A DNA stretch of 64,000 nucleotides from Rhodospirillales bacterium. GTDB lineage: Bacteria; Pseudomonadota; Alphaproteobacteria; MPNO01; UBA2964. Below, piece by piece: positions 23,793-33,655 of the stretch (its first letter is position 1; each line of letters opens with the position of its first letter). The stretch covers positions 205,140 through 269,139 of the forward strand of contig JAYOLL010000001.1 of the NCBI GenBank assembly GCA_038120295.1. Reading direction: 5' to 3'. The notes beneath the pieces are model-generated. The model saw only the letters and a list, made by a program, of their open reading frames with translations, was not told the DNA's origin and ran no database searches. Made by a program: the position numbers and the translations under genes.

Positions 23793-24449
23793 ATGCTGCG
23801 AAAACTTGTCTCAGGGATCGCGTGTTTTCTGCTGCTGGCGGGAAGCGTCTCCGCTGCGCCCGTCGTTATCGATTTTTCGGGCTTCGTCGATCAGTTCAAT
23901 CCCGGGCCGCACTCTCCCAACGTGCCACTGTTCGGACAGATCGTTCTCGACGACACTGTCGTTGCGAGCGGCCCCAACAACACTTTCGAAAACGCCATTC
24001 TGAGCCTGACGATAACGGTTCAGGATTCGGGAGGCGACGTGACCTTTACGAGCGCCGGACCGGGCGGCCGGGTGCAGCAGTTCGTCAACAACTCGACCGA
24101 ATTTATCGGGATCAATTTCGGTGCAAATTCAAGCGGCATTATAAACGGAACGGTGGAGGGGGCGTCGGGAACGCTCACGATGACCGATTTCGAGATCGAT
24201 TTTCGCGGCGTAGACCTGTTCGGCGACCCTACCGTTCTGGCGACCGGGCTGACCCAGGCGGATTTCAGCTTTTCTGAACTGACCGTCAATTACAGCACAA
24301 TCGGGCTGGAAGGGCTGATGGTCGAAAGGTCGCTTGATGTCGTCACGTTCTCGACCAGCGAGTCGATCGATGAGCCGCCGATGGCGCTTTTCCTTTCATT
24401 TGCCTTACTGTGGCTGGTCGGGCGGGCGCGTCAGGCGCCCCTCACCTGA
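23793..24449 (+). CDS. Secreted Gly/Thr-rich protein with a PEP-CTERM-like C-terminal sorting signal
   Basis: Signal peptide (MLRKLVSGIACFLLLAGSVSA). C-terminus SIDEPPMALFLSFALLWLVGRARQAPLT, i.e. an EPP motif, then a hydrophobic helix, then basic residues. Confidence 0.5.
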   Translation: MLRKLVSGIACFLLLAGSVSAAPVVIDFSGFVDQFNPGPHSPNVPLFGQIVLDDTVVASGPNNTFENAILSLTITVQDSGGDVTFTSAGPGGRVQQFVNNSTEFIGINFGANSSGIINGTVEGASGTLTMTDFEIDFRGVDLFGDPTVLATGLTQADFSFSELTVNYSTIGLEGLMVERSLDVVTFSTSESIDEPPMALFLSFALLWLVGRARQAPLT

Positions 24450-26029
24450 TCGATCAAGGCGCCGCTATCGTCGGGCAGGGCATCGTCCCGCCACGCGACA
24501 TGAGCGTCCGGCCGCACAAGCACCAGTTTCCGCTCGAAAAGGCGTATCGCATCCTCATTATCGAGGTCGACTATCTTTAACGGTACCTTGTGGTCTATGG
24601 CGGCAGCTTCCAGCGACGCAACATCGGTATCGGCCGCGCCCAGCCGCAACAGCACGAACCCGTCGCCAAACAGATCGAGGGTGGATTTGTCCCCGTCGAT
24701 CCAGCAATGCGGCGCCCTTGTGCCAGGCCGCGCCGACGGCTTGAGTAGATCCGGGCCCTGGGGCGGGGAGGTGCCATCGGCGACGCAGATGGGCGAATTC
24801 TCGTAGCGCATATAGGCGCGGATCTGGTCCGGGATCGACAGGCTGCGCATCAGGGACTGGTCTGCTTCGACAGCGGCCGACAGGCTGTCCGCCGCCGGAA
24901 GGGCGGAGAGGGCGTCGTACGTATCGGTCGACAAATCGACAAAATGCCGGGCGATCGGGCGGCACTCTATTTCGTATGACGGGATCAGGTTCGTCCCGCC
25001 CCAGCCCTTGAACACCGCCTCGAATTTCCAGGCGAGATTGTAGGCCTCGCTCACGCCGGTATGCATGCCCAGTCCGCCGGTGGGCGAGCATTGATGCGCG
25101 GAATCTCCCGCAATCAGGACCCGTCCGGGACCGATTTCCGATCCGTAAGTCCGCGCCACATAGTCGCGCCGCTCCCAGGGAGAGGTATCGATGATCTCGA
25201 ACTCGAAATCCTTTCCCATCATACGTTTGAGATAGGAATCGCCAGCGATGTCGGGATCGTCGTCATGGAAAACCGTCAGGCGCCAGTATTCCTTCCCGTC
25301 GATGGCGATCAGCTCCGACCAGCAGCCGGTTTCATCGACCATGCGGTAGAAGCGCGCCCAGCCCTTGTCGTGCATCGAGGCCAGCCCCGGCGACCGGAAG
25401 AACACGTTGACGCTGGTCGCGATGGTACCCAGCCCGTCGAGCGGAATATCGAGCGCATCGCGAACCTTGCTGCTGCCGCCGTCGCACCCGACCATGTAAA
25501 GAGCGGAAATTACGTATGTTTTTTCGTTTTCGCGATCCAGAACGGTCGCGCGGACGCCGGTTTCGTCCTGCTCGAAGGATTCCAGCTGCGTGTTGTAGCG
25601 AATATCGGCTCTGGGCAGGGACTGCGCTTTCTCGGCCAGAATAGGGTCGAAATAGATCTGTGGGCAGGTACAGGTGCCTTCCGGCGAATATTCCAGATTG
25701 CCGCGCTGCATGTAGGACGGCACCTTGAGCCGCGCCAGCTCTTCTCCCAGCAGCCCGTTGGTGTAGACGAAATCGAGCGGATGGGAGCTCGACCAGACGG
25801 CGTTGCGGACCTTGTCCGCGATGCCCCAGCGGCGGCAGAACTCCATGTTCCGGCCGCTGACTTGGCTCATGCGCGGCACGCGCAGCCTGCCGTCGCGCCG
25901 TTCGACGAGGATGCAGTCGATCCCTCGGATCCCAAGCTCAATCGCCAGCGAAAGCCCAACCGGACCCGCGCCGACGATCAGGACGGACGTCGAAAAACTG
26001 TCGTCACTGATTGCGCTACTGTCAGCCAT
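24431..26029 (-). CDS. FAD-dependent aromatic-ring monooxygenase (PheA/TfdB family)
   Basis: 532 aa. N-terminal GAGPVGLSLAIEL dinucleotide fold, GCDGGSSKVR, and GRVLIAGDSAHQCSPTGGLGMHTG FAD motif. C-terminal thioredoxin-like extension. Confidence 0.85.
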   Translation of the reverse strand: MADSSAISDDSFSTSVLIVGAGPVGLSLAIELGIRGIDCILVERRDGRLRVPRMSQVSGRNMEFCRRWGIADKVRNAVWSSSHPLDFVYTNGLLGEELARLKVPSYMQRGNLEYSPEGTCTCPQIYFDPILAEKAQSLPRADIRYNTQLESFEQDETGVRATVLDRENEKTYVISALYMVGCDGGSSKVRDALDIPLDGLGTIATSVNVFFRSPGLASMHDKGWARFYRMVDETGCWSELIAIDGKEYWRLTVFHDDDPDIAGDSYLKRMMGKDFEFEIIDTSPWERRDYVARTYGSEIGPGRVLIAGDSAHQCSPTGGLGMHTGVSEAYNLAWKFEAVFKGWGGTNLIPSYEIECRPIARHFVDLSTDTYDALSALPAADSLSAAVEADQSLMRSLSIPDQIRAYMRYENSPICVADGTSPPQGPDLLKPSARPGTRAPHCWIDGDKSTLDLFGDGFVLLRLGAADTDVASLEAAAIDHKVPLKIVDLDNEDAIRLFERKLVLVRPDAHVAWRDDALPDDSGALIDQVRGA

Positions 26030-31255: not shown

Positions 31256-32311
31256 GTGTCGACTGAACCGATTGCCAGGCTCGCATTCCGGGACCTGGGT
31301 CCGGGCGCGCTCCATGATCTGTTTCGCGCTGGATCGAAGGTCGTGGTTATCGAAAACGACGACAGGGTCCGGATGCTCTGGCGGCGACTGGTAGAGCGTG
31401 AAAGCGGCGCAAACCAGCCCGATGAGGAAGTACTTCCATGGGCAGGAAGTTTTCGAGATCTTGCACGCAATCATTATGCCGGTGGAGATATTTCCCAGAA
31501 TATCGGGGATATGGTCTGTTCCTCGGAAGGATCGATCGCTTATACGGCCCGCAAATTTCTTCTGCATCGATCACCGGCCGACGGGGCGTTGAAGACCTTT
31601 CCGCCTCATTTCGTATTTGAAGACGAGAAACACGTTATTGCCGATGACCTGCAATCGACGGCATGGGAACTGGCGTCCGAACTGACGCAGGCGATGATGC
31701 CGCCCGGCGCAGCGACGTCCGAGATATGCGTTTCGGTCCAGCGGCTTAAATACGACGAGTCGCTGGACGATGTGATCCGCAAGAACATCGTCATAGACGA
31801 CGCGATCGGGACCTGGGCGCAGCGCGGAAGAAGGGTGGATGCGATGGTGACGCGCGCCTCGGGCCTGCTCGATCACCGTTATGTCCGGGATGCGTTCGGC
31901 CTGGCGGGACTGAACGGGTTAATGCGCCGGTTGCTCGATCGTCTGAATGACGGTCAGGCCAGGCGGGATCCTGTCCGGAAAGCCCTCCCCGGTTTCGAGG
32001 TGATTGGCAGGCCGCATACGGATTCCCGCCTTTTCAGCGCAATGTGCAGCCGTCGCGACACGGTTCGGACGGAAATCTATGACGGTGCCGAATGGCATGA
32101 GCTGCCGGCGGCTCCCGATACGCTGTGCGTGTTCCCGGGCAACGGCATGATCCAGGAGTTTGGCATCGAACCGACCATGCACCGCATTCTCATGCGCGAC
32201 GGGGATGCCGCCACGTTTGGCGACAGCGGCAATGTGACGCTGCTGTTCGGCATCACGCCGGCGGCCAAGTTCGAAGGGGTGTTCGAGGCCTTTCCCGCTT
32301 CTTCTGCGTAA
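31256..32311 (+). CDS. 2-oxoglutarate/Fe(II)-dependent oxygenase superfamily protein
   Basis: 351 aa with a GTG start. HTD (HxD) triad element, then distal TMHRIL His. Preceded by an AT-rich 85-bp region. Confidence 0.55.
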   Translation: MSTEPIARLAFRDLGPGALHDLFRAGSKVVVIENDDRVRMLWRRLVERESGANQPDEEVLPWAGSFRDLARNHYAGGDISQNIGDMVCSSEGSIAYTARKFLLHRSPADGALKTFPPHFVFEDEKHVIADDLQSTAWELASELTQAMMPPGAATSEICVSVQRLKYDESLDDVIRKNIVIDDAIGTWAQRGRRVDAMVTRASGLLDHRYVRDAFGLAGLNGLMRRLLDRLNDGQARRDPVRKALPGFEVIGRPHTDSRLFSAMCSRRDTVRTEIYDGAEWHELPAAPDTLCVFPGNGMIQEFGIEPTMHRILMRDGDAATFGDSGNVTLLFGITPAAKFEGVFEAFPASSA

Positions 32312-32388
32312 TTCCACCAGTATTTCCGCCAGTATTTCCGCCAGTAATTCCGCCAGTAATTCCCCCGATAATTCCGGCAGTCATTCTG
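32305..32388. repeat. 12-bp tandem repeat array (about 7 units)
   Basis: CCAGTATTTCCG x2, CCAGTAATTCCG, CCAGTAATTCCC, CCGATAATTCCG, GCAGTCATTCTG, plus a degenerate first unit that overlaps the stop of the upstream gene. Confidence 0.7.
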
Positions 32389-32516
32389 GAGGAAAGTCCC
32401 GGTCAGCTGCTCTGGCCCGATATATTTATTCGCCGTTAACCATAGAATTTGATTTTCCTGCCGAGGTCGGGCGTTTAATCTGTGCCCCAATCGTGTAAAA
32501 CATCGGTTCTGTCCCG

Positions 32517-33299
32517 TTGCGACAAAAACCCACCAAGCCTTCCGGAAGTTCGATCGCCCGGCCCGCATCGCTTGTCTTCAACCGGTTGCGATCGGCAGTT
32601 CCGATCGGGCTGGCTGCAGTTATTTCGGTATTTGTTTTCGTTACAGACGCGCTTGCCGTGCCGACGACAGTTCCGACTGGCCTGGCGCCCGGTACGCAAT
32701 ACCGGCTCGCCTTTGTGACGAGCACGGTGCGTAATGCGACATCGGCGAATATCTCGGACTACAACGCCTTTGTGTCGGCGGCGGCCAACGCCGTATCGGA
32801 ACTGGCTGCGCTAGGGACAGGATGGACAGCGATAGCGTCTACGACGACGGTAGATGCGCGCGACAACACGTCCACAAGCCAGGCGCCTGCCGGTCCGAAC
32901 GGTGTTGCGATATATCTGATGAACGATGTCAAACTGGCCGATCATTACGACGATTTGTGGGATGGGACGATCGATAGCGTTCTCGGAATCGATGAAAACG
33001 GGAATGCGGTAGGCGGAGACACAAGGGTCTGGACAGGTACGACCTTCTTCGGCACGGCCACCGCGACGTCGGCGCTGGGAGTGCCGACAACAGAAGTAAC
33101 GCATGGACGGACGACTTTTTCTTCCGCTGCATGGGTGACCGGACAGACACTGGCGAAGAGCAACCAGCTCCATCTCTACGGTATTTCGGACATCCTGACG
33201 GTACAGGAAGATGTGGTTCTTTCAGAACCCGGCGCGATGCCTCTGGTCCTCTTCAGCCTGATTACGATGGTTATGGTCTCGCGTCAGGCGCGCTTGTAG
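32517..33299 (+). CDS. Secreted Thr/Ala/Gly-rich protein with a PEP-CTERM-like C-terminal sorting signal
   Basis: N-terminal signal/TM (AVPIGLAAVISVFVFVTDALA). C-terminus VLSEPGAMPLVLFSLITMVMVSRQARL, i.e. an EPG motif, a hydrophobic helix, then RQAR. Confidence 0.5.
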   Translation: MRQKPTKPSGSSIARPASLVFNRLRSAVPIGLAAVISVFVFVTDALAVPTTVPTGLAPGTQYRLAFVTSTVRNATSANISDYNAFVSAAANAVSELAALGTGWTAIASTTTVDARDNTSTSQAPAGPNGVAIYLMNDVKLADHYDDLWDGTIDSVLGIDENGNAVGGDTRVWTGTTFFGTATATSALGVPTTEVTHGRTTFSSAAWVTGQTLAKSNQLHLYGISDILTVQEDVVLSEPGAMPLVLFSLITMVMVSRQARL

Positions 33300-33655
33300 C
33301 CTGAATTGATCTTGATCTCGCACCCGTCCGGGCCGTTGACGATGAACGAGTCGTGACCCGGCGTCTGGCGGGCGATCGGGGCGGGTTTCAGGCCGTTATC
33401 GGCGCATTCCTGCCAGGCGGAGTCGATGTCCTTTACCCTGAAATCGAACTGAAGTGGCGCGTCGGTGGCGATATTGCTCGCCCCGCCCGTTAGCTGCAGG
33501 CGCGTTTTGTCGGAAAACTCCATCACGGCGAAATTATCCCTGTCCACGTCCTGTCGTGCGCCGAGAGCTTCGAAAAATGCGATGGCGCCGGGGAGGTCGG
33601 TAACTGACAGTCGCAAATGACCGAGCGAAAGGGACAGGGGGGGCTGAGATGCCAT
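33284..33655 (-). CDS. VOC/glyoxalase family protein
   Basis: 123 aa. LGHLRLSVTDLPGAIAFFEALG ... FIVNGPDGCEIKI glyoxalase-fold pattern. Confidence 0.6.
   Translation of the reverse strand: MASQPPLSLSLGHLRLSVTDLPGAIAFFEALGARQDVDRDNFAVMEFSDKTRLQLTGGASNIATDAPLQFDFRVKDIDSAWQECADNGLKPAPIARQTPGHDSFIVNGPDGCEIKINSGYKRA

Follow-up and report, generated by a model that had tools for sequence, protein, structure and literature searches.

Diverged PEP-CTERM-like tails on two unrelated secreted proteins of a Rhodospirillales bacterium

In a 64,000-nucleotide stretch of Rhodospirillales bacterium GCA_038120295.1 (contig JAYOLL010000001.1, positions 205,140-269,139; hereafter designated the window), two genes encode secreted proteins of 218 and 260 residues (proteins 1 and 2) that share the layout of their C-terminal tails, that is, a motif containing Glu-Pro, a transmembrane helix, and basic residues. 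Judged by alignment, both tails are PEP-CTERM domains by descent, Gly-poor and weakly basic, because homologues in both protein families carry PEP-CTERM, the sorting domain of the exosortase system, at the same aligned position. They probably still serve as diverged sorting domains, with export through the Sec pathway, transient anchoring in the membrane, exosortase cleavage near the Glu-Pro pair, and release of the mature part to the cell surface or exopolysaccharide matrix. As Gly-poor and Arg-poor PEP-CTERM tails that lie below the thresholds of the curated models, they constitute neither a distinct variant class nor a new sorting system. The window is matched by metagenome contigs from several marine and estuarine samples, and its closest genome is the Rhodospirillales metagenome-assembled genome (MAG) GCA_038116945.1. 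The two genes and the parts of their products are as follows.

23793-24449, plus strand: gene 1, encoding a 218-residue secreted protein of family 1 with a signal peptide, a beta-barrel domain, and a tail apparently derived from PEP-CTERM (product 23793-24446; from translation, homologues, and the AlphaFold model)
23793-23855, plus strand: signal peptide of protein 1, MLRKLVSGIACFLLLAGSVSA, with predicted Sec-type cleavage after VSA and before AP (from sequence and homologue alignment)
23856-24362, plus strand: mature domain of protein 1, predicted to form a small up-and-down antiparallel beta-barrel of about 170 residues
24363-24446, plus strand: tail 1, SI-DEP-PMALFLSFALLWLVG-RAR-QAPLT, with the motif D193-E194-P195, the helix 196-210, and basic R211 and R213 (from family alignment and tail profile)
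32517-33299, plus strand: gene 2, encoding a 260-residue secreted protein of family 2, counted from the first TTG (product 32517-33296; from translation and homologues)
32517-32657, plus strand: N-terminal region and signal peptide of protein 2, ...RLRSAVPIGLAAVISVFVFVTDALA, aligning with the homologue signal peptides, with predicted Sec-type cleavage before VPTT
32658-33203, plus strand: mature domain of protein 2, with a predicted endostatin-like (C-type-lectin-like) fold of about 185 residues (from AlphaFold and Foldseek)
33219-33296, plus strand: tail 2, L-SEP-GAMPLVLFSLITMVMVS-RQAR-L, with the motif S236-E237-P238, the helix 239-255, and basic R256 and R259 (from family alignment and tail profile)

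Tails and homologue families

Translation of the two genes gave C-termini ending in ...SIDEPPMALFLSFALLWLVGRARQAPLT for protein 1 and ...LSEPGAMPLVLFSLITMVMVSRQARL for protein 2, both exactly as reported in an initial annotation made from the letters of the window. Its description of two secreted proteins with tails of shared layout was thereby borne out, a signal peptide being present in each. In full, tail 1 spans S191-IDEPPMALFLSFALLWLVGRARQAPLT-218 and tail 2 spans L235-SEPGAMPLVLFSLITMVMVSRQARL-260; the latter had been placed at 33216-33296, of which the end is right and the start is 33219. The uncharged stretches that follow the motif comprise 16 residues in tail 1 and 18 in tail 2. The AlphaFold models contain a C-terminal helix at residues 197-212 of protein 1 (predicted local distance difference test, pLDDT, 87) and at residues 241-259 of protein 2 (pLDDT 86 overall and >94 over most of the domain).

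The homologues of both proteins carry recognizable PEP-CTERM domains. Family 2 comprises at least 911 homologues, most of them with PEP-CTERM tails; many have a precomputed PF07589 assignment, and NCBI gives several the name 'PEP-CTERM sorting domain-containing protein'. When 111 members were aligned, 63 matched TIGR02595, 75 matched any NCBIfam model bearing PEP-CTERM, and 13 matched the VPLPA-CTERM model TIGR03370; the family consensus C-terminus reads ...LTVxxVPEPGxLxLLALGLxGLxxxRRRR. Family 1 is smaller, with 29 close homologues and 69 representatives at 50 % clustering, nearly all of them ending in PEP-CTERM or VPxPA-type tails, and 14 of 28 members matched models bearing PEP-CTERM. Its close members mostly show [VI]xAPG followed by a Gly-rich helix and then RRRR, and the distant ones show VPEP or VPxPA. 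The signal peptide of protein 1 also aligns with those of all homologues, the sequence 'AAPV' past the predicted cleavage site being nearly invariant.

Column by column, both D193-E194-P195 of protein 1 and S236-E237-P238 of protein 2 fall on P-E-P. The second-Pro column is occupied by Pro in 107 of 110 sequences of family 2 and in all 27 of family 1, where P195 is invariant and aligned to the second Pro of PEP or APG. The column of E237 holds Glu in 90 of 110 members of family 2, and the first-Pro column of the same family (n = 110) holds Pro in 83, Ala in 11, and Ser in 10, about a quarter being without Pro; a homologue ending in the tail SEPP (P0038) bears the name of a PEP-CTERM protein from the NCBI Prokaryotic Genome Annotation Pipeline (PGAP). 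In family 1, tail 1 has Glu where most relatives have Ala and is in this respect nearer to canonical PEP. The conserved pair is accordingly the E-P of PEP itself with the first Pro replaced, giving DEP and SEP in place of PEP, and not EPP or EPG in place of PEP as had been read initially. Moreover, a protein of a sister species that is 69 % identical to protein 1 (P0002) retains ESI[DN]EPP[ML]AL and an intact tail, NEPPLALLTLLACLSIAALGRGRHQAPRN, which shows the same Gly-poor, Arg-poor drift.

As in the known PEP-CTERM/exosortase system (TIGR02595 and PF07589; Haft et al. 2006, PMC1569441), the window tails stand at the extreme C-terminus of Thr/Ser/Asn-rich, Cys-poor proteins bearing signal peptides, present the motif, the transmembrane helix, and the basic residues in this order, keep the E-P pair, and occur in several instances per neighborhood. 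They differ from it in having D or S for the first Pro, one helix Gly as against about three, and two Arg (RAR and RQAR) as against an RRRR cluster, in running into convergent genes, and in missing all curated thresholds. VPLPA-CTERM tails (TIGR03370) are likewise tripartite, and several distant members of family 1 end in VPxPAAxWLF-type sequences, but the window tails have neither the VPLPA nor the WLF signature and gave no TIGR03370 match. Thus, of the proposal that the tails represent a variant signal of the exosortase class, the class is upheld by the curated PEP-CTERM domains of the homologues and by a third protein matching PF07589 (see below), whereas the distinct variant is not.

The RQA ending and overlaps with convergent genes

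The initial annotation had also included RxRQA in the consensus of the signal. Both tails, however, end within genes that run in the opposite direction, and the shared letters lie at these junctions.

24431-24449: 19-nucleotide 3' overlap of gene 1 with a convergent FAD (flavin adenine dinucleotide) monooxygenase gene (24431-26029, minus strand, ending ...QVRGA-stop)
24427-24438, plus strand: first copy of the 12-mer CGCGTCAGGCGC, encoding (A)RQA of tail 1 (reading frames checked)
33284-33299: 16-nucleotide 3' overlap of gene 2 with a convergent glyoxalase-family gene (33284-33655, minus strand, ending ...YKRA-stop)
33280-33291, plus strand: second copy of CGCGTCAGGCGC, encoding (S)RQA of tail 2 (reading frames checked)

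Just two exact copies of the 12-mer are present in the window, one at each tail end, and at both sites its complement forms, in the same phase, an Ala codon and the TGA stop codon of the convergent gene. The overlap of gene 1 also exists in a sister MAG (L007), where HQAPRN lies opposite ...QFRGA-stop; the canonical-tail homologues examined have no such overlap and stop right past RRRR. The tails thus appear to resemble each other in RQA because CGCGTCAGGCGC also encodes the Ala and stop of the convergent genes. From these reading frames, a dual-coding constraint best explains both the shared 'RxRQA' and the QAP conserved in family 1, neither of which is likely to have a role in sorting. As a candidate part of the sorting signal, 'RxRQA' was rejected, RQA being the antisense Ala-stop of the convergent genes.

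Processing of the tails

A hidden Markov model (HMM) was built from 131 homologue tails and applied to the C-termini of 578 six-frame open reading frames (ORFs) of the window, among which no other ORF with such a tail was found. When every ORF C-terminus in the flanks was scored, a third secreted protein of the same population was detected (L100:15084-15806, minus strand; 240 residues with a signal peptide). Its gene is located 2.3-3.0 kb left of the window start, on a contig that overlaps the window by 12.8 kb and agrees with it there at 99.97 % identity. The tail of this protein, ISEPAFMMLVALGLASIALRRR, scored 24.3 bits with the tail HMM and 22.4 bits with PF07589, above the cut-off of 20.7; with the two in the window, it brings the number of tails to three within some 36 kb in this population. 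An in-frame stop codon interrupts the third gene in one assembly, L099. A search of 5.8 billion proteins with a 41-residue query from the tails gave no candidate with three shared words of five residues.

Upstream of the third gene (L100:15807-15931), a sigma-54 promoter, TGGCATTGAATTTGCT, stands 39 nucleotides before the ATG, and TTTACA stands 64 nucleotides further upstream. In proteobacterial PEP-CTERM genes, the spacer from motif 1 (ending in TTTACA) to motif 2 (sigma-54) is 62.8 ± 10.6 nucleotides; the pair is found at only 99 of 167 such genes, and the arrangement is tied to PrsK, PrsR, and PrsT, regulators that occur together with exosortase (PMC1569441). Sites of such quality are rare, numbering seven on both strands of the whole window, and the motif pair was found upstream in 13 of 47 homologue loci. 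The match of the third gene to PF07589 and its sigma-54/TTTACA architecture make it very probable, as far as can be told from sequence, that a PEP-CTERM/exosortase system is at work in this genome.

In the route that we consider probable for proteins 1 and 2, each would leave the cytoplasm by the Sec pathway, directed by its N-terminal signal peptide, and the C-terminal helix would act as a transient anchor with the Arg residues inside. An exosortase of the EpsH/Xrt family, plausibly encoded elsewhere as had been stated at the outset, is predicted to cleave at or near E-P, upon which the mature domain would be released or transferred to the cell surface or the exopolysaccharide matrix. We infer that an exosortase is present in this genome and that both tails probably continue to be cleaved. 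The composition of the mature parts (proteins 1 and 2, respectively: Thr 10.7 and 16.0 %, Ser 9.5 and 7.5 %, Gly 11.8 and 9.1 %, no Cys, few basic residues; Asn 5.3-6.5 %) is rich in Thr, Ser, and Asn, free of Cys, and poor in basic residues, which agrees with the Thr/Ser/Asn-rich, Cys-poor make-up of PEP-CTERM cargo (PMC1569441).

Several results weigh against continued processing. Neither the two proteins nor their isolated tails gave a Pfam or NCBIfam match at E ≤ 10, a search in which the HMMER filters may hide very weak ones, and neither tail reaches the curated cut-off of TIGR02595 or PF07589; the check by TIGR02595 and other CTERM models put forward at the outset thus failed for the window proteins, whereas homologues do match. 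With the tail HMM, tail 1 scored 8.7 bits (E 0.046) and tail 2 scored 5.1 bits (E 0.63), both below the lowest of the homologue tails (15.5-53 bits, median 37.5). The helix contains one Gly in each tail, as compared with homologue means of 3.3 for tail 1 and 3.25 for tail 2, and the six positions past the helix contain two basic residues in each, as compared with means of 3.5 and 3.8, in line with the weakly basic end described initially; the Gly and basic counts of both tails are of the lowest class observed among the homologues. Genes 1 and 2 also have no sigma-54 promoter upstream, nor the sigma-54/TTTACA pair, but since the pair is missing from many PEP-CTERM genes, this absence does not exclude their membership. 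Curated PEP-CTERM models thus miss degenerate tails that family alignment recovers, and the numbers of cargo proteins in alphaproteobacterial MAGs are therefore underestimated.

To the same side belongs the search for the enzyme itself. Neither the window, nor the 10 kb flanking it on each side, nor the neighborhoods of about 100 related loci yielded an exosortase. The screen covered the window and 106 loci (about 0.9 Mb in total) for ORFs having multiple transmembrane segments and the EpsH motifs C-x-G, N-x-x-R, and H-x-x-x-G (EpsH itself has at least eight such segments), together with Pfam searches of 25 candidate ORFs and precomputed Pfam assignments for the 10-kb flanks. The motifs occurred in no ORF of the window or the 106 loci, and PF09721 was absent from the 10-kb flanks past both window ends. 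The five polytopic ORFs of the window all encode transporters, namely, DctM, two of the major facilitator superfamily (MFS), EamA, and CitMHS, and further large ORFs encode metabolic enzymes or a hybrid kinase, in agreement with the original statement that the window holds no exosortase. Since epsH is normally located in an exopolysaccharide locus, away from its cargo (PMC1569441), its absence from about 84 kb is uninformative for the whole genome.

An unlikely but serious alternative is that the tails are relic signals, derived from PEP-CTERM and no longer processed, which now act as permanent stop-transfer anchors and keep the beta-barrel and endostatin-like domains attached to the inner membrane on its periplasmic side. 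The scores far under the homologue range and the failure of all curated models favor this reading, and the Gly-rich helix and RRRR have been lost alike in two unrelated proteins and in P0002. The C-termini have been remodeled through overlap with the convergent genes; gene 2 is dispensable, being missing from a sister MAG, and in one population variant it carries clustered amino-acid changes in the signal peptide. Against it, both tails and the sister-species protein retain E and P, the most conserved residues of the motif, and tail 1 even has E where most of family 1 has A. Furthermore, a canonical, apparently sigma-54-regulated PEP-CTERM gene adjoins, and the machinery is therefore probably present.

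Somewhat more doubtful is a wider proposal for the lineage formed by the window population and GCA_038116945.1. There, loss of the helix Gly and poly-Arg may have made formerly cleavable tails of two or more cargo families either permanent anchors in the inner membrane or substrates for a re-tuned exosortase, a conversion driven in part by 3' fusion into convergent genes, with the neighboring cargo remaining canonical; if true, one signal class would have had two fates within one genome. The one canonical and two degenerate tails of this genome, together with the sister species, form a small natural series on the requirements of exosortase. New biology would follow only if the tails turned out to be uncleaved.

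That the tails belong to a separate sorting class, in which a non-exosortase enzyme (rhombosortase, myxosortase/CPBP, or a sortase-like protease) reads 'EP[PG]...RxRQA', is very improbable. Their failure with every curated PEP-CTERM model and the RQA following both helices would fit such a class, but RQA is accounted for by the antisense Ala-stop, the tails align with PEP-CTERM homologues column by column, and no candidate protease is encoded among the transporters, metabolic enzymes, and hybrid kinase of the window. The tails also lack GG, Cys, and LPXTG. The LPXTG signal of sortase A resembles PEP-CTERM in its motif, transmembrane helix, and basic cluster, followed by cleavage and transfer (PMC1569441), but differs in motif, enzyme family, and destination, the Gram-positive cell wall. 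GlyGly-CTERM/rhombosortase and MYXO-CTERM/myxosortase are likewise tripartite C-terminal sorting systems of Gram-negative bacteria. The former needs Gly-Gly, and there is neither a GG in the window tails nor a rhomboid-like ORF among the polytopic ORFs of the window; the latter needs an invariant Cys, of which there is none in the window tails or mature domains. Least credible is a chance resemblance of two ordinary C-terminal membrane anchors without a shared origin as sorting signals, since, although the HMM scores are weak, the tails rank first and second among the 578 C-termini, and the family alignments, with positional homology to PEP-CTERM in two independent families of hundreds of members, refute it.

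Mature domains and the surroundings of the genes

The mature parts of the two proteins, described from the outset as unrelated and rich in Thr, Gly, and Ser, are so by profile comparison, predicted fold, and the composition given above. When the profiles of families 1 and 2 were compared by hhalign, the signal peptides alone aligned, and homology of the two mature domains was ruled out by this result and by their differing predicted folds. The domain of protein 2 resembles endostatin, the domain of collagens XVIII and XV, in predicted fold: the five best Foldseek matches in PDB were all endostatin (1dy1, 1koe, 1dy0, 1dy2, and 1bnl), with E values of 1.5e-7 to 1.4e-5, a probability of 1.00, and target-normalized template-modeling (TM) scores of 0.64-0.68 over about 185 residues. 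Sequence identity is, however, just 15-16 %, and protein 2 differs from endostatin in being a putative bacterial surface protein with a PEP-CTERM-type tail. A sequence profile gave no match in PDB, and the mature domain of protein 2 is covered by none of the Pfam models. In its own right, the endostatin-like fold of this widespread cargo domain may also deserve attention.

One homologue of family 2 (P0034; JGI, Joint Genome Institute, 3300072015) is encoded on a 349-kb contig within an exopolysaccharide-type locus, among whose genes are several for glycosyltransferases, two for asparagine synthases, and one for a uridine diphosphate (UDP)-glucose dehydrogenase. It is in loci of this type that PEP-CTERM/exosortase systems are usually found.

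Gene 1 starts 17 nucleotides past a YCII-family gene. Gene 2, whose signal peptide would count 24 residues if translation began instead at the TTG at 32586, is preceded by an ORF of 351 residues (31256-32311) without a Pfam match. Both are missing from the syntenic sister MAG as part of an insertion or deletion of about 2 kb (window 31256-33299 versus L007:15459-16838), at which locus the sister MAG has an ornithine-cyclodeaminase-family gene followed directly by a glyoxalase-like gene. The 351-residue ORF was ruled out as a functional partner of gene 2, showing no linkage to family 2 at any other locus. A 12-nucleotide tandem repeat, GTAATTCCGCCA (32308-32386; 6.6 copies, 83 % matches), occupies the intergenic region between this ORF and gene 2. 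The GC content at third codon positions (GC3) is 0.64 in gene 2 as compared with 0.75-0.79 in the neighboring genes, and a tblastn search of protein 2 against plasmids gave no match.

Within the population, variation amounts to at most 1.5 % of nucleotides, too low for the ratio of nonsynonymous to synonymous substitutions (dN/dS) to be estimated on the tails, and the ORFs of both genes are uninterrupted in 5-16 independent assemblies. The variant Ga0181587_10000064 (L021/L001) differs from gene 2 of the window at 12 nucleotides, 11 of which lie within the first 223; eight of these 11 alter amino acids, including I30S and V42G in the core of the signal peptide. From this copy of gene 2, the JGI gene caller predicted a product of 126 residues only.
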